Positions 314-35,080 are shown, counted from the whole stretch's first letter. The stretch: 62,961 bases of DNA, filler included, from Globobulimina sp. (GCA_003354225.1; 23 parts of 23 records of this genome joined end to end with filler, not necessarily neighbours in it), one strand, 5' to 3'. Notes: generated by a model not told the origin, from the sequence alone. A program made the numbers and translations.

Positions 314-2645
314 TTACTGTACTGTTTTACCAGTGATCTTCTCAATTTTCGCAATAATATGTTTACCAAACATTAACTTTCTCAAATTGGGGACTAATTC
401 CATCACATTCTTAATGAGTCGGTTTCTCTGCGCCACGTTGGTCACTTCCAACAACTTCTGAATCACATAATTGCCGTATTGGTCCCGCACCATTTGCACC
501 ATCGGCGAGTTTTCCTGCGTAGTCCCAATCACACATTCTAATAAATGATCCCTTTCGTCGTCGTTCCCGAACATGAAGCATTTCTCCACCACATTGCTCG
601 AAAACTTGTGCTTACTCATCGCCAACACGTTGCTCGCCACCTCTCTGATGATCCGATTGCGGGCCTGATCCGGTCCGTGTTTCAGCACATGTTGCACCAC
701 ATAGTTGCCGTAAGAGTCCTTACTCAAAGCTAATATACTCCCAATCAACTCGTTCAACAACGGATCTTTCTGAGTCTCGTCGCAATGCTCCAACAACCGC
801 TGAATCACTCTGCAGCCATACGGATGCGTACTGAAATGGTACACTTTGCCTTTAAACGTGTCAATGATGAACGCGATGTGCAACGAGGGCACCTCGGCAA
901 TCACCTTCTGGATCACATGGTTGCCGTTCTGATCACGCACGCAATCTTCCACATGGTCCTTCAACTCGGAGACTAGGGTTATTTTGAGATGGTCGTGGAC
1001 GTACTCGAAGGCTTTCTGGATGACACGGCAGCCATACATCGATTTGGTGAGCGGCAGCACGCGGCCACGGATGATCTGCGCCAACTCGATGCGATGAGTA
1101 TCGGTGCCGTGCTCGAAGAACTTCTGAATCACATAATTGCCAAATGCATCCTCACACAGCGCCAGCGCATTGCGTTGGATTTGGCGAAAAACGCCTTCTT
1201 TGTCCTGCAAGGAGGCGGTTTCTAAGCGTTGCTGGATAAAGCGACTGCCGTTCTGATCGCGCGCTAATTTTTCCACCACGCCGGCTTCGATTAACTGCGA
1301 TAACGAGATGTTGCTACGGGTTAATTGCCGCGGGTCCATATTGGCGATATCTGCTATGGACGGATTATCATTGCCGCCGCCATTGCCGTTGCTATTACCA
1401 CCGCCACCTCCACCGCCGCCGGGGGTATATTCTCGCTGTTTGTTGTTGTTATTTTTGTTGTATCCCTGGCGTTGTTGCCGTGGGGGCACGTTTTTGCTCA
1501 TATTATTGTCGTTATTTGCATACTTATTCTGATTCATATTGTTGTTGTTATAGGGACTGCGGTTATAATTATTGCCGCCGCCGCCATTGTTGTTGTTGTT
1601 GTTGAAATTATTATAATTGCTGTTGTTAGTATTCCTGTTGTAATTATTTTGATTCATATTGTTATTTTTGTTGAAAAATCGGTTATTGTTATTAGTGCTG
1701 TTTGGGTTGTTATTATTTTGTTTATTATTTTGATTCCACCGCTGATTATTTATAGGGTCATTGGGCGGACTGTTCAGCGAATTATTCATCGAATTGTTGA
1801 TGCTGTTCATGGGATTATTCACTGAATTGTTCACGGAGTTATTCATGGGATTCCCCACCGAGTTATTCATGCTATTCATGGAATTGTTCATGCCGCTGTT
1901 CATCGGGTTGTTTACCGGATTGTTCATGCTGTTCATCATCGGGTTGTTCATTTGCCATTGGTTCATTTGGTTCATTTGATGCATTTGGTTGTATTGGTTC
2001 ATCGTCATCGGGTTCATCGGGTTCATGGGGTTCATGCCGTTCATGTTGGTGTTGTAGCCGCCCATTTGCTGCATTTGGTTGTATTGATTCATGCCCATCT
2101 GATGGTGGCCATAGCTGTGTTGAGCCCACGCCGGTGACATCATGCCATTGTTGGGATTCATCATCATCTGGTTCATCATCATCGGGTTATAGCCACCCAT
2201 GGCATTGCCCCCTGCTCCTCCTCCATTGGCACCATTCACGTTGTTCCTCATATTCACACCGCCGACGCCGCCGCCCATGCCATTGGCGTTAAATCCATTG
2301 ATTTGCGGCGATATACCACCACCACCTCCCCCACCACCACCGCTATTGTTGTTATTTATCGCGCCACTTTGCGCACCGCCGCCCGTCAAACTATTCAAAT
2401 TCATTAAGTTCGGGGTTATAATCACTTGCTCGTCCACTTCCTCACTGGTTTCTGTGTTCAAATCCAATCGCAATCCTTTTGGATTCTTGATCACCGCATT
2501 TAAGTTATTATTCCTGGCGTTGGCCGCATTGTTGAGATTGCCATTGGACGCCGCTATGCTCTCTGTACCCGAAGTTACGGTGATTTTGCCTTCCGCTATC
2601 AAGGTCAATTCGTTTTTATTCTTATTCCCTTTTTTCTTCCCTTTC
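314..2645 (-). CDS. PUM: Pumilio/PUF RNA-binding protein, 5'-partial, with a long N/M/G/Q-rich low-complexity region and 8 PUF repeats
   Basis: Eight repeats with recognition motifs SRFIQ, NYVIQ, CRVIQ, NHVIQ, CRVIQ, NYVVQ, SNVVE, NYVIQ, which is the classical PUM1/2 code. The frame stays open upstream of the TTG at 2608 to the contig end. Confidence 0.95.
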
Positions 2646-2747: not shown

Positions 2748-5381
2748 GCACAAATACCACAACCATGCCATCTTAATCATTGTTCAGAAATTCAAAATCC
2801 AACTCAGAATCCTACAACAGATCCCACTATCGACCCTACATCGGATACAACAAAGCAGCCAACAATGAAACCAACAATAGATGTTACATTTGATCCGACG
2901 TTTGATCCGCCACAACCTCCTACATCCCACCCAACAAATGATCCAACAATAAAACTTACAGTGAATCCTACATCCGATACAACAGAACATCCAACATTTC
3001 ACCCAACCATAGATCCAACCAAATCAGATTCTAATTCAGATGCAACATCTGACCCAACCGCAAGAAACCTCCTCTCAATAAACCCTACAATTGATCCAGT
3101 CGATGAACCGACCATTGATCCCACGATATATCTCACAAATGATCCAACAAATGAGCCAACAAATGATCCAACAAATACTCCAACAAATACTCCAACAAAT
3201 GATTCAACAAATGATCCAACAATAAAACTTACAGTGAATCCTACATCCGATACAACAGAACAGCCAACATTTCACCCAACAATAGAGCTTACATTTACGC
3301 CATCACAACATCCAACCAAATCAGATGCAACATCTGATCCAACCGCAATAAACCATACAATTGATCCAGTCGATCAACCAACCATTGATCCCACGATATA
3401 TCTTACAAATGAACCAACAAATGCGCCAACAAATAAACCAATAAATGAGCCAACAAACGATCCAATAAATGGACCAACAGATGTTCCATCAAATGAAAAT
3501 CCGTCTCATGCGCCTACCTTGAATCCAACAATTGATCTAACAAGAGATCCTGCGATTGATCCAACAGCAGAACCAACAAACGATCCCAATATTGAACCAA
3601 CAACAGTCCCTATATTTGATCCTACACAAAATACAACTAATCCAACATCAAATTCCCCCACAAAAGTTCCTACTGTGGCGCCAACAATATATAATCGCAC
3701 TGCACAGATAGAGATATTGAAGGAGCTTTTGAGGAATGTAACAACAGCACCATCACCATCACCATCACCTTCACCAACATCTCTTCCAACATTATCACCG
3801 ACATCAAATCTTCCCGCCGCTTTACGATCGTATGATTCATTCTTTCTCATCAAGTATTTAATAAAAGATTTAGACACTCAATATATTGAAATGTTGGTCA
3901 AGCAGATATCTTTGATTAGTGGTCATATTTCTGAAATTATTCAAGAAGCATATGTTGAATCAACAGGATTGGAGCTTGGATTGTTTCTGTTAAAAATTGA
4001 GAAAATGTTAGGTTTCGAAATAAAAGATATCAATGAAACAAAATATTCGCATTTTTTAAATTCAACAGATGAAATATCTTTAGATTATAGGATTCAATGT
4101 AACGCAGCAGATTGCTATGTGTTATTAAATCGTGATTTTGAAAAACAATTTGAATCAATGGCACAGACTAAACTAAGAAAATATTTTCCAGATTTTATGT
4201 TTGATGCAAATGCAATTACAAATGAAGTCTCCCAATTAATATTTGAAATTGCAAGACCTGATCCATCCGATAGACCAATATTAAAAGTTACTGACCACAC
4301 AGTACTGGTTATTTTATGCAGTATTATGTCGATAATGTTTATGATTTCGTTTTTAGCATTTTGTCATTCAAAAGGAAAATGTGGTGTTCCTGGTGGAATC
4401 CCAATGGATAATACTTTATGGAATGCACCAATTATTTATGGATTACAATTTATAGTTTTTGCAAATGATATTAATGTATGTTTTGAAATGATATTTAATA
4501 AAGATTTCGAAACGGGTTTAAGGGTCGCAATGTGCTGCGTTTCTATCGTATTTATATTAATTCCATATGTCACAAATTTATATTTTGGAACCAAAATTAT
4601 ATTACAAATCTCGAAAGAAAACCAAACTGCAATTTCGTTTTTCCGCCAACGAAAATTGATTTTTGTCGTTTCAACTCTAATTTGTGGTGGTTGCTATCCT
4701 GCGGTTTATCTATTATCGTCGGGGATATTTGGTTTACAAATATTTTGTTCGGGATTGACAGATTATGAAATTAAAAAAATGAATCATATTAAAATATTCT
4801 CAACTATTTTTATGCAGCATTTGCCACAACTATGTGTTCAATGCGTTTATATTGCGGCTATACATCAAATATCAATGAATGTGATATTGGCATTTATCGC
4901 ATGTATTTTATCGATTATTTGTACAGTTTTGCCATATACGATTCGTTCAAAATATCCAATCACATATTATCTCTTTATAAAGATAATGAGTGCAAATGAT
5001 GAGGATAACAGTGATAAATTTATATTAAACAAAGGTAAAATAAATAAAATATCACAGATACTTTCTCAAGCATTGGAATGTGCGGCAAATAGAATTCAAA
5101 TATCTCGTGAAGGCCCAGTGTTTTTTTCCGTAAATGCATCGCAAACACGCAATGGATGTGGAGTGACATTGTATGTTCTGCATTTTGTAAATGATCTCAA
5201 TAAAGATATTCATTTGCACGAAATAATGAAAATATATCTAGAAAGAGAACATTTTTTAAAATATCGGTTCAAAGAACATTTTGGTTTCAATGGAGAAGAT
5301 ATATGTTTGCTAAAATTGAATAATATTATAATTGATAACAGTGAACCGGATGCCATGTCGTTGTGGACATCGCCTGTGTAG
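2748..5381 (+). CDS. Surface membrane protein, 5'-partial: PT-repeat mucin-like stalk followed by a multi-pass TM domain
   Basis: The frame is open from the contig start (AQIPQPCHLNHCSE...). About 300 aa of (D/E/N)PTx repeats are followed by several hydrophobic helices, including FMQHLPQLCVQCVY, which resembles the ExxPQLxxQ motif of XK-related proteins. Confidence 0.8.
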   Translation, partial: AQIPQPCHLNHCSEIQNPTQNPTTDPTIDPTSDTTKQPTMKPTIDVTFDPTFDPPQPPTSHPTNDPTIKLTVNPTSDTTEHPTFHPTIDPTKSDSNSDATSDPTARNLLSINPTIDPVDEPTIDPTIYLTNDPTNEPTNDPTNTPTNTPTNDSTNDPTIKLTVNPTSDTTEQPTFHPTIELTFTPSQHPTKSDATSDPTAINHTIDPVDQPTIDPTIYLTNEPTNAPTNKPINEPTNDPINGPTDVPSNENPSHAPTLNPTIDLTRDPAIDPTAEPTNDPNIEPTTVPIFDPTQNTTNPTSNSPTKVPTVAPTIYNRTAQIEILKELLRNVTTAPSPSPSPSPTSLPTLSPTSNLPAALRSYDSFFLIKYLIKDLDTQYIEMLVKQISLISGHISEIIQEAYVESTGLELGLFLLKIEKMLGFEIKDINETKYSHFLNSTDEISLDYRIQCNAADCYVLLNRDFEKQFESMAQTKLRKYFPDFMFDANAITNEVSQLIFEIARPDPSDRPILKVTDHTVLVILCSIMSIMFMISFLAFCHSKGKCGVPGGIPMDNTLWNAPIIYGLQFIVFANDINVCFEMIFNKDFETGLRVAMCCVSIVFILIPYVTNLYFGTKIILQISKENQTAISFFRQRKLIFVVSTLICGGCYPAVYLLSSGIFGLQIFCSGLTDYEIKKMNHIKIFSTIFMQHLPQLCVQCVYIAAIHQISMNVILAFIACILSIICTVLPYTIRSKYPITYYLFIKIMSANDEDNSDKFILNKGKINKISQILSQALECAANRIQISREGPVFFSVNASQTRNGCGVTLYVLHFVNDLNKDIHLHEIMKIYLEREHFLKYRFKEHFGFNGEDICLLKLNNIIIDNSEPDAMSLWTSPV
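2934..3412 (+). repeat. Imperfect internal tandem duplication (period about 270 bp) in the PT stalk; ends approximate
   Basis: ACAAATGATCCAACAATAAAACTTACAGTGAATCCTACATCCGATACAACAGAACA occurs near 2934 and near 3207. TACAATTGATCCAGTCGAT...ACCATTGATCCCACGATATATCT also occurs twice. Confidence 0.85.
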
Positions 5382-8233: not shown

Positions 8234-10647
8234 GGAAATCATAGTGGATGGGTTGGAGTTATTCAGCGCATTGCCAAAGGTCATCGACGTGCTGCCGACA
8301 TTGGGGTCGACCATCGGCGAATACGGATGCATGGCAGAGGGGTTCATGCTGTTCATGGTGGTGTTGCTCATCCCGCTCATGGTGCCGGATAAGGAATTGC
8401 TTACGCTCGAACTCACCGGCTGCTGCATCATCTGCGTCTGGCCCAAAATGGACTGGATATTGGCCGTATTGGTATGCAGCATCGGCGATGAGCTGGGAGG
8501 AGGGCCTTGAGCGTACACGTTGGTGTTCAGCATTTGCGACTGCGGCTGCGGATTGTTCATATTGGCCGGGGGACATCGGGAAGGTGTTGGCGTTGAGGTT
8601 GTTGGGCGCGGTCAGACTCGCCACGTTGATGTTGGCCTGGTATTGGTGAGAGGGGTTGCTGGGGTTTGGAAGGGGCGCGGATTGGTGCTGGATTTGCGGA
8701 GAGTTTACGAGTTGATACTGGGCGTATTGCGAAGGGTTGATGGCCTGCAACGCGGTGGGAGTGGTTACGGTGATGACGGCGTTCTGAGAGGGAGTGGTGG
8801 GCAGAATCTGTTGCTGAGGGTGTTGGTGTTGGTGTTGGTGTTGGTGGACGGAGACTGGCTGAGGCCCGGTCGGAGTGTTTGACACTGTATATTTGGCTGT
8901 AAATATTTCAGGGAAAGTGCAGTTTGAAAGGGAACATACCCATTTTGGCGATATTCATAGGCGAGATTTGCTGTGGCTGCGCTTGCGGCGGCTGCTGAGG
9001 AGACAGTGTGCGCACCGCTTGGGCGATAATCTGCGCCGTGGCACTGTGCGAAGGTGGGGCCATAGGCATAGGCATAATCGGTGTGGTGGTTTGAGGCGGA
9101 ATGGGAATGGGAATGGGAATGGGAACGGGAATTGGAACGGGAAGGGGCGGCTGGGTTTGGCTGTCGTTGTTGGCGTTGTTGACCACGCCAAAGGTGGGCG
9201 ATAAGGTCGGTGTGGATTGTTTGACCACGAAATCGAAGCGAATGGCCACCAATTTGTAGCGGTAATAGACTGCGCCGGTTTGGCTTTGCAAATTGCTGAC
9301 TGGCTCTTTTTGTAAATAGAATTTGTAGGAGCTGTTGGTGTTTGGCTCAATGTGTTCTAACAAGATGCCGCCATTCCAATTGCTCTCGTTTTGCTTCAAC
9401 ACGGAAGCCGTCGAAGATTTGGACAGATCGTACGAGAAATTCATCTGATATTTGGATTTGCTGTTTAAATCTTGCAAGTTTGCGATGACGCGGCCTCGCA
9501 CAAAACGCAAATACGTGCTTTCTTGCGCATTGTTGACGTAATGGTAAGAAGTGGAGTTTTTGTATGGAGACAGTTTGTGGTCGTAATACAATAAGACATA
9601 TTCCGACGAATTCTGGTCGTCCGTGACAGACTGGACTTGCTCGGGAATGTACATATTATCGGCACAAACATCGGATAATAAATGGAAAAATTTCAACTCG
9701 ATTTTGAAGCGTCGCTTTGGCCGAATGTTGTGCCCATTGCTGGCCGCAAAGGCCAAGGATTTGAGCGATTTGAAGGAGATGGGCTTAAATTCGGAGTCGT
9801 GGAACGTGCGGAATGTGTTAGATACGACTTGTTTGGCGGCAGCTAACCGGATAACATGCTGACAATTTAATAATCGGCATTTTAAGATGGCAAATCCCAA
9901 CGAATTGTCATACTGCCCACAATCTGCACTTTCGTCGCGATCGCAATCCATATTCGAATTCTCTTCGTTTAAGCGGTCATAGCCAGTCACGGACAGCGGA
10001 CACTTTTCTTCGTTTAATATGTTTCGTAATTTGAGCTCCAAATCTTGTGTAAAGGTCACTTGGTAATAATTGTCGTATAAATTGCGAATGTTTGCCATTA
10101 TTCTTTGAATCTGCTTCGCCAAAATCTGGTCTTGTTTGCCTGCACAAAGATACATAAAAATAAAATAAAAAAAATAAATTTATTAAAAAATACCTTTGCG
10201 TGCGGGTTGAATGGGTCTCATTTTATTTTTATGCTCATTCTCAATTTGGGTCTGACTCGGTCCAAATCGAAGTTGTGTCGGTTTCTTTAAGCCAGGCGGC
10301 CCGCTGCCGGCCACTACGTTGCATTGCACCCTTTGTTGCTGCTGTTGATATAAAATGGATTCTCGCTGCAACTCGCTCCATTGTACGCTGTGGAGGTCAG
10401 CGGGCATTACGCCGCTCCCTTTGTTGTGTTTGCAGTTGAATGCATCTGTAAAATTGTACAAAGTCACTGGTTTTTTGAAGTCGTTCACCGCCGATTTCCT
10501 CGCTGAGGCTAGCATTTGTTCTCCATTTCCATGCGAATAATAGCCAATGGTCAAAATGTCGTCGTTTGTGAAATATTTGCCTAAATTATCGGTGATGCTC
10601 TTTCCCCCTTCGATTTCGCACCAAATCGACACTTTAATCTCAGTCAT
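8234..10647 (-). CDS. Unknown multi-exon protein with a globular core and a long P/Q/S/N/M-rich tail, 3'-partial, one apparent frameshift
   Basis: ATG at 10647. GT-AG introns 10140-10193 (54 nt) and 8885-8939 (55 nt) join three ORFs in frame. Removing one base from the G5 run at 8568-8572 continues the frame into MNNPQPQSQM. Confidence 0.7.
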
Positions 10648-10977
10648 GCAACGACGTAAAATCACTGCATTCTGTTTAAAAAACAGTGAAAGGATACAAT
10701 TTAAAAAAGAATACGCAAAAACGCAACATACCACATCGGTGCCTAATAATTCACAGCAAACCAACAAGCACAATTTCAGAAATTTATCGCTCAGTGAGCT
10801 CCCTTTTGACGTTAAACCAATATCCCAACTCCCTGCTGCATCTATGTATGGTTTGCAATTTGGTTTTGTTTAATTTTNNNNNNNNNNNNNNNNNNNNNNN
10901 NNNNNNNNNNNNNNNNNNNNNTTAATTAATTAANNNNNNNNNNNNNNNNNNNNNNNNNNNNNNNNNNNNNNNNNNNN

Positions 10978-12953
10978 CTATTTTTCATGAGCGAAGTGAG
11001 TTTGATAAAACTGTGGCAATCCGCACAAATCCTTAAATTCTTATTAATAACTAACAGATAATGGTTTGGAGTGGTCAATAATCCATAGAGCAGAGCTAAT
11101 TTCTCGCCATGTCTCAACAATCTGTCTTGTGCGGTTTCGTTGTCATTCAATTGTCTCGTTATTAAACTCAAATCGTGTTGGAAATTATAATTAGTTTGCA
11201 AAGCAACGGCAAGTTGTTGCAAATGGCGATCAATGATTCGGTATTCCCTTATTTTCCTATATTCGTAGCCTGCATAAAACTGATGGATTTTGCCATAAAT
11301 ATCAATTTGCGAGATAGCAGGTTCTTTTTTCCATCCTTTTCTTTTCATTTCATTCCAAATATTCTCCGATTTCTCATATTCGCCAAATGAAGAATGCAGA
11401 TTTGACAACAACACCGAGGAAGAAACCAAATACCTTTCATTCTTTGGAAACCTTTTTTTTATTTCTCTATGAATTTGTTGCGCAAATATCAAATCTTTAT
11501 ATTTCTTGCATGCGCTCAACAGTGACATCCACATACTTTGATGATAATTGTTATTGCTGTAACTCTCATATTTGTCAATTAACTCTTTTGCTTTTCGCAG
11601 CTCTCCCTTTCTCGACAAAGTATCCACCATTGCTGTCACCACATATTTGTCATATTTCACATTCTCATCAACAATCTCATTGTTCCAAATATCGTTTGCA
11701 TCGCAAAGATGCCCCGAATGACTGCAGCAATGTATCAATGATAAATAAGTGTAGGCACTGCAAGCGATGTTATATTCATATTTCATTTTATTGAATGTTT
11801 CTTTGGCTTTAATAATATCACCATTGCGGCCGTACGACTTTATCATACAAAGCCAAATCCATTCTTCTTTGCGATATTTCTCATTCTCATTCATCTCAAT
11901 CTCGCAAAATATCTCCTCGCATTTGCCCATCATTCCACATTTGCCATATAATAAAATCAAACTAATTTGGATTCTCAATTCCGACAACATCCATTTATTA
12001 CCACCTATATTGTTCAATAATTGATTGTGAATTTTATGGCCAAACTGCAAGGCGGTCGCTTTAGCGCAACATCTTAACACTACAATAAAGCATAAGATGT
12101 CTGCTCGCAATTTGTTATTAATTGACTGCATATTTGCAAATAAATGGATGCATTCTGTGTTCATATTTGCATTGCAATAAACCTGCAGCATGGCGCCAAC
12201 ACAGACGATGTCCATCTTATTATTGTCAATGGATTGGAATATTTTCAATGCGTTGAAAACATCATTCTGATAATAATGAATTAGCATTCCTTTGATGTAG
12301 ATATCATTTGTCAATAAGCTCTCATATTTGTTATATATTTGCATTGCTTCTTTGTATTTGCAACATTTCATAAATGCCCTCATCATCGCACCGATGGTTA
12401 CATCTGTTTTGACAGAATCTGCAATGCCATCAAATATATTCAATGCATTCTCCTCATCACCAAAATAGCCATACATATCAATCAAAGAATTTTGGATTTT
12501 CAGATCTTTCTTTGTTGACTCCACACTTTGTAGGATATGGTGAATATGTTTGCCTTTGTCAAACTTTTTAGATTTTATGCAACATTTTATCAACAATGGA
12601 TATCCAATGTTCGCAGTGCCACTATTTTTGTGTTTCAAGCATTCTGTTTCAATGTCCTTCCAAATGGTGAATACAAAGGAAGTTAATTCAAAATGAACAC
12701 ACAATTTCACCAACGAATTGATTACCAAATGATTTAAATTTGATCCATTCACATTATGGTAGATTTCAAATGCTTTCTTGACAATTTCTTTGTGTTTGTA
12801 TGAGTCGTATTTATCATACATTTTATCACCATCATTAATATAAAGTTGTTTGATCATTTGAGCTGCAGCGGATGAGGTCAGATTGTTTATAGTTCCAGTG
12901 CTTGAAAAATACAAATTAGAAATTTTAAGAATTTTCATACATCCATATTTCAT
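10978..12953 (-). CDS. PLS-class PPR protein with E1, E2 and DYW deaminase domain (RNA-editing factor type), 3'-partial
   Basis: S: NSLIDMYGYFGDEENALNIFD. L: CFIVVLRCCAKATALQFGHKIH. L2: TYLSLIHCCSHSG. S2: AMVDTLSRKGEL. E1: WMSLLSACK. E2: VLLSNLHS. PG-box equivalent: KKEPAISQIDIYGKIHQFYAG. Active site: HGEKLA...KNLRICADCH, which is HxE(x25)CxxC. Confidence 0.95.
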
Positions 12954-13013
12954 TTAATTTAATTTACTTTGCTGCTGTTCACATCTTTTCTCTTCACTTT
13001 AGTTTAGTTTAAT

Positions 13014-13621
13014 ATGACTAGGTTTTTTGTGCGTTACATTTCTCAAGCAACCAACAAGAGAATACTTTATGAAACAAAGGAGAAATCGCATTATATCAAA
13101 GCCACCCAATTATTACACCAATTACAAGCAAACAAAAACTACCAATCCAATCAACAAGAATTAATTAAGGATGCATTCAAAATCTACGATAAAATAAGTG
13201 CCACTGCAGATTACCTGGCTATTAATCCATTGCTGGAACTTTGTCTAAAATGTAGATATCCTGAAAAAGCATTATTAATTTGGACAGATATTAAAGAGAA
13301 GGCTTTGAATAAAAGCACATATTTATTGTTAATCCAATGTTGTGCCAAAACTTTAAATGTTGATAAGAATAAAAGTAAATGCATAGATATTTTAGAAACA
13401 ATTCATCCGATTATTATGAATGATGCTGATGTTTATAGCAAAACATGTTTAATAAATGTTTATAGTCAATATTCCAAAAATAGTACAAATAAAATGAGGA
13501 AAGCACTGCAAATATTTGATTCAATCCATGATGATAACAAATCTGTGGTGTGTATTGGTGCAATGCTTAAATGCTGCATCAATTGCAATGATAACGAGAT
13601 GGCATTGTCAATCTATGACAA
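13014..13621 (+). CDS. PPR protein (PLS-like), 3'-partial, head-to-head with the DYW gene
   Basis: Presequence-like N-terminus (MTRFFVRYISQ). Repeats KTCLINVYSQ...ALQIFDSI and VVCIGAMLKCCINCNDNEMALSIYD parallel those of the neighbouring gene. Confidence 0.85.
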
Positions 13622-24693: not shown

Positions 24694-25772
24694 TTTCTTA
24701 TTTTTTCTAATCTTTTTTCCTTTGTTAATAATACATGCAAACCATTGATATCATGTTTATTGTCATTTTTTAATGAAATATATTTATTATAAACAGTCCA
24801 CATTTTGTCCAATTCATTTATATTTGCAAAAGCGGTCAATATTTGACGCAGATAAATCTTATTATTTATTTCATGCATTTTATTGAACTCAATCTCATTC
24901 AACAAATCCTGCGCTTTTGTTTGATAAATATCCGTTTTAATCTGTGAAAAGGCAATAACTGCCATACAATAACAAGCAAAATCAGGTTTAATTCTTCTTT
25001 CTTCAACAATAACGTTCCAAATATTTATCAATAATTCCTCATTTATCAATATATGTCCTTTCGATTTATGAATGCAAACAATAAATAATTGTAAAACAAA
25101 TGAATCAAATAATTGTGTATATTTTTTTGTATTGATAGTTTGCCAAATATCTGCCACAAAATGTGTCTCTTTGCAACGTATTAAACATTGCAATATTGTG
25201 GACAAAATATAATTATTCAATGTAATATTTTTATATTCATTTATCATTAATTTGTATTCAAACAACATATTATTTACATCGGATAATAAAGCAAATGAAT
25301 GAATAATTGACCACCAATCTTTTACTGTAAAATCCGCGCAATCATATTTATATTTTAATTCATTTATTAATTTATATACATTCTGTTTTGTGTCATCATG
25401 GCCAGATTCATGCACATGTTTTGCCAATATAGTGATCATAAAACAATATGATTTAATTGATGGTGAAACTCCCTCTTTAATCACCAGCTTATTCCATATT
25501 GTTTCACTAATATTTGATGAATATTTATCATTTGTTTTAATTCTTTGGCATCCAAAAAGTAATGTTTTCAGTGTATCATCGCTGAGAAACCTATTATTAT
25601 TATTATTCATCAATAAACTAAAAGCCGACGAGACTTCTCCTTTTTTGCACAAATCAAAGATATTTCCATTAATTTCGTGTTGTGTACGGGATAAATAAAA
25701 TTTGGTATGCAGCACAACCATGTGCTTGAATCGTTGTGTGAGGTATTTGTTTGACAGTACTGGACCAACCAT
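24694..25772 (-). CDS. Divergent PPR-like protein, 3'-partial
   Basis: Helical repeats of about 35 aa: GVSPSIKSYCFMITILAK, WWSIIHSFALLSDV, IKPDFACYCMAVIAFSQ, ILTAFANINELDKMWTVY. Basic presequence-like N-terminus. Confidence 0.7.
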
Positions 25773-32974: not shown

Positions 32975-35080
32975 ATGAGCTTTTTTGTTAACAAACTTTA
33001 TCAAAGCATGGCACCTTTCGCAAAAGCAAACAAACATAATACCATACACCACACAATGTACATGTGTACGGTGGCATATTACAACAACTCGAATGGAGCT
33101 GCAACAATAAAAAAGATGTATCAACTGAAGAATGCGAATAATGCAGAGATTCTTAACAAAGCAATGGAAATTTATGGAAATATTTACGATAAAAAAGAGA
33201 ATATTTTAATAAATACAATGCTTAAATTATTAATACACTTAAAAGAATATAATTATATCAACTTAATGTGGAATGATATTGAACAAATTCAGCGTAAAAA
33301 CACAATCTCATGTCCAATTATTATAAAATGTTTTGTTTTCTCATCAGCTGAAAATAAAAACGATATTCTTTCCAAATGTATTCACGTTTTAAAATGGATG
33401 CAATATTGTAAATATAATATAAAATATTATGAAATGAATGATTTCTCAATGTCAGTCTGTAAATTATTAGCAATTTGTAGCGAGTTAAATGATATTAAAC
33501 ACATCCAACAAATTCATTTTTTGATTGATGAACTTATAAAAAAAGACGATGTTTTTATTAAAACCGCATTAATAAATTGCTACGGCAATTATTCACTTAT
33601 TCAAAATGCATTAAATGTATTTGATTCTGTTTCAAATAAACATAAAGACAATGTAATGGTTGCCTGCTTAATGAAAATATTAATAAATAACAATTGCAAT
33701 CATAAAGCATTGAATATCTTTGATGAAAATATAAAAATTATAAATTTAAAAACAAATGATTTTGTTTGTCATATGTTAGCCATCAAAGCGTTGATAAATA
33801 TTTCCGATTTGCACAGTTTTGAGAAAGGAAAACAAATTTATTTAACCATTACAAATAACAAAGTCATTGAAAACATTAAGCTCAGCAACATTTTCATTGA
33901 TTTTTTTGGTCATTTCGGAGATTTGAACAATGCGTTGAATATTTTTAATTCAATTCAATGTGATATAATTTCAATTGCATCCATGATGAAAACATTTGCA
34001 ATCAATCAAGAAAATGAAAAAGCTTTGCAATTATATAATGAATGTGATATGATTAAAGACGATATAATGAATGTGATAGCCATTAAATCGTGTATACATT
34101 CAGCAAATAAACAAAATGGATTTGAAATTATAAACAATGAAAAGCTACAAACCAAAGACGATATATTTATTAAAGCCGTTTTGATTGAATTTTATGGCAA
34201 ATTTCAAGATATAAACAATGCCGTAAATATATTTAATTCCGTTCAAAATCATAATAAAAATATTGTGATTATTGGCGTGATGATGGAAATGTATTTTAGT
34301 TGTAATTTATTTAATGAATGTATTGATTTGTTCAAAAATATTACATTTATTAATAACAAATTGAAACCAAATGCGATTTGTGTGGTTATTGCATTGAAAG
34401 CATGCACTCAATGCACATTATATCATTTTGGAAAATATTTATTTAATGATATTATACAAAATGATAAAGAATTGTTCTGTGATATATCCGTGCAAATTAA
34501 TTTGATAAATTTTTATGGAAAAATTGGTGAAATGGGGGTTTGTGAAAACATATTTAAAACTATAAAAATGAAAGAAAGTGATAAATTTTGTTGTGAAATA
34601 TCGATTTGGAATGCAATGTTTCAAGGATTTGCGCGAAATGCAGATATTGAAAATTGCATCAATTTATTGAATACAATGGAAATTGAAACAAATTATAAGT
34701 TGAAACCAGACAGAAAAACATATATTTTGTTAATAAATGCTTGTTCGCATTGTGGCGATTTGGAAAACGCATCAAATATTTGGAATAATTGTATCATTGA
34801 TCAAGATATAAAATATGATAGTTATGTCATTACTGCTTTGGTTGATTGTTATGCAAGAAAAGGAAAATTGGAGCAATCAATCAATTTCATCAAAGAGTAT
34901 GAAAAATATTCCAATCTGCAATCGTTTCCAATGTGGATATGTTTATTGAGCGGCTTTGTAAATAATAACACTAAAAACAAAGAGATTGCCATGGATATTT
35001 ACAAAGAAATGGAAATACGGTTTGGGACAGAGAGTGAAACAATGATTCCCGCTACAATTATTATTTCAAATGTTTATTGA
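32975..35080 (+). CDS. PLS-class PPR protein ending within E2, no DYW domain, complete ORF
   Basis: S: KTALINCYGNY..IQNALNVFD. P2: IWNAMFQGFARN. L2: KPDRKTYILLINACSHCG. S2: ALVDCYARKGKL. E1: WICLLSG. Ends IIISNVY-stop. Confidence 0.92.
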   Translation: MSFFVNKLYQSMAPFAKANKHNTIHHTMYMCTVAYYNNSNGAATIKKMYQLKNANNAEILNKAMEIYGNIYDKKENILINTMLKLLIHLKEYNYINLMWNDIEQIQRKNTISCPIIIKCFVFSSAENKNDILSKCIHVLKWMQYCKYNIKYYEMNDFSMSVCKLLAICSELNDIKHIQQIHFLIDELIKKDDVFIKTALINCYGNYSLIQNALNVFDSVSNKHKDNVMVACLMKILINNNCNHKALNIFDENIKIINLKTNDFVCHMLAIKALINISDLHSFEKGKQIYLTITNNKVIENIKLSNIFIDFFGHFGDLNNALNIFNSIQCDIISIASMMKTFAINQENEKALQLYNECDMIKDDIMNVIAIKSCIHSANKQNGFEIINNEKLQTKDDIFIKAVLIEFYGKFQDINNAVNIFNSVQNHNKNIVIIGVMMEMYFSCNLFNECIDLFKNITFINNKLKPNAICVVIALKACTQCTLYHFGKYLFNDIIQNDKELFCDISVQINLINFYGKIGEMGVCENIFKTIKMKESDKFCCEISIWNAMFQGFARNADIENCINLLNTMEIETNYKLKPDRKTYILLINACSHCGDLENASNIWNNCIIDQDIKYDSYVITALVDCYARKGKLEQSINFIKEYEKYSNLQSFPMWICLLSGFVNNNTKNKEIAMDIYKEMEIRFGTESETMIPATIIISNVY

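Follow-up and report, generated by a model that had tools for sequence, protein, structure and literature searches.

A plant-type PLS-E1-E2-DYW pentatricopeptide repeat gene in DNA of a probable foraminiferan

C-to-U editing in plant organelles is carried out by pentatricopeptide repeat (PPR) proteins of the DYW type. Here, we analyzed a stretch of DNA of 62,961 bases (the window) that carries a gene, P0001, for a protein of this kind. Like the land-plant PLS-E1-E2-DYW factors, P0001 has its parts in the order P/L/S repeats, P2-L2-S2, E1, E2 and DYW, carries the HxE...CxxCH signature, and is colinear with the structures 9kfx and 7o4e (OTP86/At3g63370). The PLS triplet of its family, about 101 residues long, is close to that of plants, where the three motifs measure 35, 35 or 36, and 31 residues. 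P0001 differs from the plant factors in being 21–28% identical to them, in falling into a separate DYW clade, in the absence of one L motif and in its P-A box; moreover, its orthologues P0005 and P0006 end in DYY and EYY rather than DYW.

DYW-type PPR proteins have also been described outside plants, in papers that are cited here and below from excerpts of their text. They are already in print for Rhizaria, a group that the list of non-plant holders in the first-pass annotation of this DNA had omitted: paradinids (Ascetosporea) have one and three DYW sequences per strain, which group with fungal DYW domains and have a two-residue deletion in common with them (PMC11946409), and 31 DYW domains were counted from NCBI nr (PMC13386178). 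The paradinid proteins share with P0001 its probable rhizarian and nuclear setting and have kept the H, the E and both C residues; in that paper they are tied to observed C-to-U editing. Judged by the published description, the PLS triplets and many paralogues of the present family set the two apart. Lineage-specific DYW-type PPR families in protists are likewise known from Naegleria gruberi, Acrasis kona and Physarum polycephalum, in which mitochondrial C-to-U editing occurs (PMC4202320, PMC4758236). These taxa belong to other supergroups, and their named sequences lie outside our DYW tree; the Physarum proteins are mostly 'LS-type' (PMC4758236), whereas the foraminifer-like family of P0001 has a three-motif periodicity. 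The bdelloid rotifers Adineta ricciae and A. steineri share the side of the DYW tree on which P0001 stands (a 30-row group with a Shimodaira-Hasegawa-like approximate likelihood ratio test value, SH-aLRT, of 86), but they are animals and not protists, are about 35% identical to it in the DYW part, and have no resolved placement within that group.

The first-pass annotation had proposed a plant-type PLS-E1-E2-DYW gene of a non-plant eukaryote at 10978–12953. The gene is real, and its frame of 658 codons lies on the minus strand, reading from 12953 down to 10980 (Table 1). The protein matched the Pfam families PPR (E 3.5e-23, 80.6 bits against a curated cut-off of 25) and PPR_2, E_motif at residues 511–550 (E 1.8e-6, 28.5 bits; curated cut-off 27.3), and DYW_deaminase (PF14432) at residues 591–656 (E 1.8e-15, 57 bits; curated cut-off 24), the last over profile positions 2–66 of 93 because the domain is cut by the contig end. 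Residues 230–654, including the E1/E2 region, are colinear with 9kfx, a solved plant-consensus 'Synthetic PPR-DYW protein' (E 1.2e-55), and residues 548–655 align to the OTP86 DYW domain 7o4e (E 1.3e-13). We utilized AlphaFold2 to predict the structure of the protein from 31 sequences, which gave a mean predicted local distance difference test score (pLDDT) of 88.3 and a predicted template modeling score (pTM) of 0.76. The model shows paired helices in an alpha-solenoid over residues 75–539, followed by a beta hairpin (strands 547–552 and 555–560) and further helices. Its best fold matches are PPR structures, with 9kfx_A at the top (E 5.9e-19, 630 columns). The domain layout is genuine and far beyond chance, and the proposal of a plant-type gene in a non-plant eukaryote is upheld by the Pfam matches above cut-off, the two structural alignments and the fold match, together with the lineage data below.

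We then aligned P0001 with its two orthologues, P0005 and P0006, a relative of its paralogue and three plant proteins (alignment A1, seven sequences). H615, E617, C643, C646 and H647 were invariant. The earlier statement that the zinc ligands and the catalytic glutamate are intact is thus correct for the HxE/CxxCH catalytic site, while the C-terminal Cys/His group that it also covered lies outside the window. At the other end of the protein, the first 30 residues contain no D or E, three K and eight S or T, the first acidic residue is at position 41, and the N-terminus is unconserved among the orthologues. Composition is thus the basis of the presequence-like N-termini described in the first-pass annotation. 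The leader is a possible mitochondrial presequence, a candidate that its composition fits and does not prove.

The contig end falls inside the DYW domain of P0001, after CxxCH, and leaves the last 25 residues outside the window. Both orthologues are full length with their motifs intact; their tails read CSC followed by NDYY in P0005 and CSC followed by NEYY in P0006, and P0005 matches 7o4e over chain residues 4–137 of 138. Contigs of the public runs X1 and X2 extend 113 and 341 nucleotides past position 10978. Because these continue beyond the 78 nucleotides needed for 25 codons and a stop, the missing 3' end is an assembly break and not a truncated gene, and the end of P0001 probably exists beyond the cut. 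P0001 is also present, about 99% alike, in run X2 from a second study (P2), and pieces 95–99% alike occur in runs X6 and X7 from a third (P3). Compared with the 95–99% relative, the 22 listed differences in the coding sequence comprise 15 synonymous and 7 non-synonymous changes, with 31 further differences on the compared stretch standing outside this listed and classified set; compared with the ~99% relative, four of five coding differences are synonymous. This substitution pattern points to purifying selection, and P0001 is probably functional. A truncated or decaying copy would agree with a frame that, within the window, has neither a stop codon nor a DYW tail. However, the cut coincides exactly with the contig end, contigs from other assemblies run past it, and the 658 codons are stop-free with synonymous differences exceeding non-synonymous ones by 15 to 7, so we regard a pseudogene as very improbable.

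To place P0001 among its relatives, we examined 75 protein matches. The closest were P0005 (68% identity, 96% coverage) and P0006 (63% identity, 99% coverage), and named plant proteins were 21–28% identical. According to the source labels, P0006 (from EukProt), P0007, P0012 and P0014 derive from Nonionella stella and P0034 from Bolivina argentea, both foraminifera; at least six distinct DYW-type relatives come from Nonionella stella. The 119-residue DYW part, run exhaustively through phmmer, matched 1075 representatives with E values of at most 1e-3, of which 56 reached 1e-10 or lower, and many of the best matches end in NDYY-like tails. When the DYW region of P0005 served as the query in a word-indexed search, 3 proteins emerged from 74 candidates. 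The DYW phylogeny that the first-pass annotation had suggested was built from 131 candidates, out of 166, whose DYW domain was nearly complete, plus the partial domain of the window, as a quick, unrooted maximum-likelihood tree of 132 rows and 142 columns. P0001 grouped with P0005 and P0006 (SH-aLRT 98), within a 17-row clade (SH-aLRT 95) that takes in all six Nonionella rows and nine other rows. The six Nonionella paralogues interleave with other relatives. The eight named plant rows are all placed on the opposite side of the tree (SH-aLRT 88). The Adineta rows and the Bolivina row fall inside the wider 30-row group, within which the branching is unresolved. Since the tree is unrooted and short, it is uninformative on the direction or number of transfers.

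These data bear on plant or algal contamination of the assembly, a danger that the first-pass annotation had itself raised. Although the domain layout is typical of land plants, P0001 is 63–68% identical to foraminifer-like proteins and 21–28% identical to plant ones, and all eight named plant DYW rows stand on the opposite side of the tree. In addition, P0001 is AT-rich like most contigs of the window, is nearly unchanged in run X2 (P2), and has its 95–99% counterparts in X6 and X7 (P3). Contamination of this kind can practically be dismissed.

The window joins 23 contigs of 2639–2645 bp through joints of 44 N, 12 bases and 44 N. The contig of the PPR-DYW gene occupies 10978–13621 and has a GC content of 0.328. 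Elsewhere, the window carries ordinary eukaryotic nuclear genes (Pumilio, P4-ATPase, PI3-kinase, formin and a ClpB-like AAA protein), and an Rfam scan of the whole window detected zero RNA genes. The P4-ATPase, on a separate AT-rich contig, has a Nonionella stella protein as its best match (72%); its best other named matches are all fungal, at 51% or less, and no animal appears among its top 120 matches. The host of P0001 is quite likely a foraminiferan.

We next searched the window for further members of the family. Among 223 open reading frames (ORFs) of at least 70 amino acids, profile hidden Markov models (HMMs) of the PLS motifs matched three, namely P0001, P0002 and P0004; this census, which the first-pass annotation had recommended for the assembly, was run within the window. 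P0002 is 31% identical to P0001 over 188 amino acids (BLASTP, E 9e-20) and matches the PLS HMMs (E 2.3e-11), with Pfam PPR_2 at 28.2 bits lying slightly below its cut-off of 30. P0004 is 32% identical to P0001 over 513 amino acids (BLASTP, E 9e-77), scores 48.5 bits with Pfam PPR, and has no DYW domain: a stop codon stands at the start of E2, and the next gene follows. Its relatives P0008 and P0009 also have no DYW domain and end at the same point, which indicates a DYW-less subclass and not an accident, and this subclass appears to be conserved. The PPR paralogues announced for the window were thus borne out at 13014 and 32975 on the plus strand. Four PPR genes on three of the 23 contigs had been claimed; together with P0001, these two make three confirmed PLS-class genes on two contigs, and the fourth, P0003 on a third contig (25772, minus strand), is doubtful. 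Its best Pfam match, PPR_2 (E 0.0049, 17.4 bits), is below the cut-off of 30, and it matched neither the PLS HMMs nor NCBIfam nor, at E values of 1 or below, any chain in the PDB. Language-model features (Atlas) placed it nearest to PPR clusters (0.96), with a recognition value of 2206, below the reliability mark of 2300. P0003 is at most a divergent P-class helical-repeat protein. These results support the membership of P0001 in a multi-copy family. Because the window was picked for the PPR-DYW gene, it is a biased sample, and the further confirmed PLS gene on one of the 22 remaining contigs does not translate into a family size. The large PPR editing system and the probably extensive mitochondrial editing inferred in the first-pass annotation would go beyond these results.

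Table 1 Features of the PPR-DYW locus and of the other PPR genes in the window.
Feature	Coordinates	Strand	Remarks
Coding sequence of PLS-E1-E2-DYW PPR protein P0001	10980..12953	-	658 codons, stop-free; ATG at 12953; 3' cut by contig end at 10978
N-terminal leader, residues 1-29	12867..12953	-	Poorly conserved; model pLDDT <50 at residues 1-20
PPR array, residues 72-473	11535..12740	-	About 11 helical-hairpin motifs, P/L/S variants, with P2-L2-S2 at the end
E1 and E2 motifs, residues 474-543	11325..11534	-	Pfam E_motif; alignment to 9kfx
DYW deaminase domain, first part, residues 544-658	10980..11324	-	PF14432; 7o4e match; P-A box at start
HxE, codons H615-G616-E617	11103..11111	-	Zinc-binding and catalytic; H615 and E617 columns invariant
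CxxCH, codons C643-H647	11013..11027	-	Zinc-binding; C643, C646 and H647 columns invariant
Spacer between divergent start codons	12954..13013		60 bp; presumed shared promoter region
P0002, 5' part of PLS-class paralogue	13014..13621	+	202 codons, cut by contig end
P0003, PPR gene of the first-pass annotation	24696..25772	-	Unconfirmed
P0004, complete PLS-class paralogue	32975..35080	+	701 amino acids; longer PLS array than P0001; stop at start of E2

P0001 and P0002 are divergently oriented, and a contig of run X1, possibly the source data of the window itself, spans 12831–13202 across the spacer between them. Two other runs show peculiarities at this pair. One 575-nucleotide contig of run X7 joins 11716 straight to 13451, skipping 1734 bases and keeping the same strand over both divergent genes; it is probably a low-depth chimera. 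In run X2, contigs end at 12990, 37 nucleotides upstream of one ATG, and at 13041, 27 nucleotides inside the other gene. Adapter-like letters flank one of the X2 contig ends, and depth is 29 on one PPR gene and 3–7 on the other. The ends of cDNAs could look like this, but RNA ends cannot be read from contigs. Among the runs that carry P0001, none is listed as RNA; X6 and X7 may be RNA data, although as contigs they are no evidence of transcription.

We analyzed the motif organization of the family with the PLS-motif HMMs, which were built from 18 foraminifer-like proteins including P0001, P0002 and P0004. Across the family, the motif chains read S-P-L-S-P-L, that is, PLS triplets, with modal spacings of 31 residues ahead of L (n=67), 37 for L (n=69) and 33 following L (n=56). 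Because the HMMs for P and S became alike on iteration, these two labels were assigned by position relative to L, and motif boundaries are approximate. In alignment A1, P0001 and both orthologues are without one L motif after the first P.

By homology with plant PLS-DYW factors, the P0001 protein would be imported into the mitochondrion. To our knowledge, a foraminiferan host is a rhizarian protist without a plastid of its own, and the presumed target is therefore the mitochondrion. There, the roughly 11 PPR motifs together with E1 and E2 would contact a single RNA segment, each motif recognizing one nucleotide, and the zinc-dependent DYW cytidine deaminase (HxE...CxxCH) would convert one particular C, situated a few nucleotides further downstream, to U. 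We infer the organelle targeting, RNA binding, editing activity and targets of P0001 by homology. In the excerpts cited, protists with PPR-DYW proteins, rhizarian paradinids included, also show mitochondrial C-to-U editing (PMC11946409), Naegleria is cited as a PPR-DYW case with mitochondrial C-to-U editing (PMC4758236), and C-to-U editing is likewise the subject of the Acrasis kona paper.

Overall, we consider it reasonably probable that P0001 is a nuclear PLS-E1-E2-DYW PPR gene from a foraminiferan, or from something very closely related to one, and that it belongs to a multi-copy family diversified within that lineage. Several points weigh against this reading or its functional extension. 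The plant PPR code combines N, T or S at position 5 with D, N or S at the last position. With boundaries approximate, such pairs occur in about 26 of 56 S-type motifs and are rare in motifs labeled P. The part of the DYW domain outside the window holds the C-terminal Cys/His cluster (CxC) and the DYW-type tripeptide. The Nonionella and Bolivina protein sets presumably come from field-collected cells and may carry other eukaryotes. GC content at third codon positions (GC3) is bimodal across the larger ORFs of the window: Pumilio (0.63), PI3-kinase (0.69), the ClpB-like protein (0.57), formin (0.55) and the ORF at 8908–10155 (0.57) fall at 0.55–0.69, versus 0.18–0.43 for the PPR genes, the P4-ATPase and the remaining larger ORFs. 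The assembly may thus contain more than one organism. The PG box of P0001, at residues 545–546, reads P-A where both orthologues and the plant consensus have P-G; this box is described as variable among non-plant DYW domains (PMC13386178). Finally, gene content gives a hint of mitochondrial C-to-U editing in these protists. A 2023 mitogenome paper based on single-cell genomics, the only such paper found for Retaria, describes 14–15 protein genes, rRNAs in fragments and, for Miliolida, a cox1 frameshift that is conserved. It makes no mention of C-to-U editing and contains 'pentatricopeptide' or 'PPR' zero times in the portion of its text considered here. Apart from this weighing, expression-linked codon bias would be an alternative source of the bimodal GC3.

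The mixed GC3, the presumed field origin of both named protein sets and the presence of Adineta rows on the foraminifer-like side of the DYW tree (the 30-row group, 86) are what one would expect if P0001 came from a co-sampled eukaryote, such as prey, a symbiont, a bdelloid rotifer or another protist, and if the Nonionella and Bolivina matches were shared contaminants. Yet the Adineta DYW rows are just ~35% identical to P0001, and six different Nonionella paralogues are interleaved with other relatives. The P4-ATPase, a housekeeping gene that has no relation to P0001 and lies on a different AT-rich contig, likewise finds its best match in Nonionella stella, similarly distant at 72%, and its contig has a GC3 of 0.34, compared with 0.26–0.38 for the PPR genes. 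A co-sampled source is unlikely, and we retain the foraminiferan origin.

A further alternative concerns function. P0001 may bind organellar RNA without editing it, acting in stabilization, processing or translation, for example of fragmented mitochondrial rRNAs, with a DYW domain that is inert or otherwise used. The change of the PG box to P-A would suit this, as would the complete absence of a DYW domain from P0004, P0008 and P0009, and the retarian mitogenomes are gene-poor with fragmented rRNAs and have no editing reported for them in the cited text. On the other hand, the catalytic-site residues are all kept across paralogues that are just 32–36% identical overall, a conservation not easily accounted for unless the domain acts as a deaminase. 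Plants, too, have PLS/E proteins that lack DYW, and these cooperate with DYW proteins provided in trans. A purely RNA-binding role is thus the less probable account, although a more serious one than a co-sampled source, and we continue to favor a deaminase that would edit mitochondrial transcripts.

Other parts of the window contained further genes. The Pumilio-family protein at 314–2404 (minus strand) carries PUF repeats (E 6.4e-75) preceded by about 330 low-complexity residues rich in N, G, M and Q. An 838-amino acid protein at 2865–5381 (plus strand) contains a long run of short repeats rich in P and T, which match the Pfam PT repeat (E 3.6e-14); the hydrophobic region behind them looks multi-pass, and the protein had no further family match. 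At 8259–10773 (minus strand), three ORFs (8259–8885, 8908–10155 and 10183–10773) are separated by gaps of just 22 and 27 nucleotides and may be exons of a single gene whose introns are very short, or else parts of a gene with a frameshift.

DYW-type PPR proteins were known in Rhizaria, and the present analysis adds a foraminifer-like PLS/E/DYW family from a probable second rhizarian lineage. A full-text literature search returned no text naming Foraminifera or Retaria as holders of DYW-type PPR proteins and, among the papers listed, none that by its title or the opening of its abstract deals with PPR proteins of foraminifera, although the supplementary species list of PMC13386178 may include one. 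The patchy occurrence of these proteins outside plants feeds a long debate between an ancient origin and repeated horizontal transfer, and a family that has PLS periodicity and E motifs, and in which some members carry DYW while others lack it, offers a well-separated data point for it. Tentatively, Foraminifera, and perhaps all Retaria, might possess a large, lineage-expanded PLS/E/DYW family akin to the editing apparatus of plants, and many unnoticed C-to-U edits in a small mitochondrial transcriptome. The main value of the finding is a testable and cheap prediction of C-to-U editing in foraminiferan mitochondria. If such editing is real, it would affect the annotation and barcode use of foraminiferan mitochondrial genes. 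If the edits are many, mitochondrial proteins derived from DNA and barcodes of cytochrome c oxidase subunit I (COI) would differ from the mature mRNAs, and part of the reported mitochondrial 'divergence' of foraminifera would be unedited sequence.

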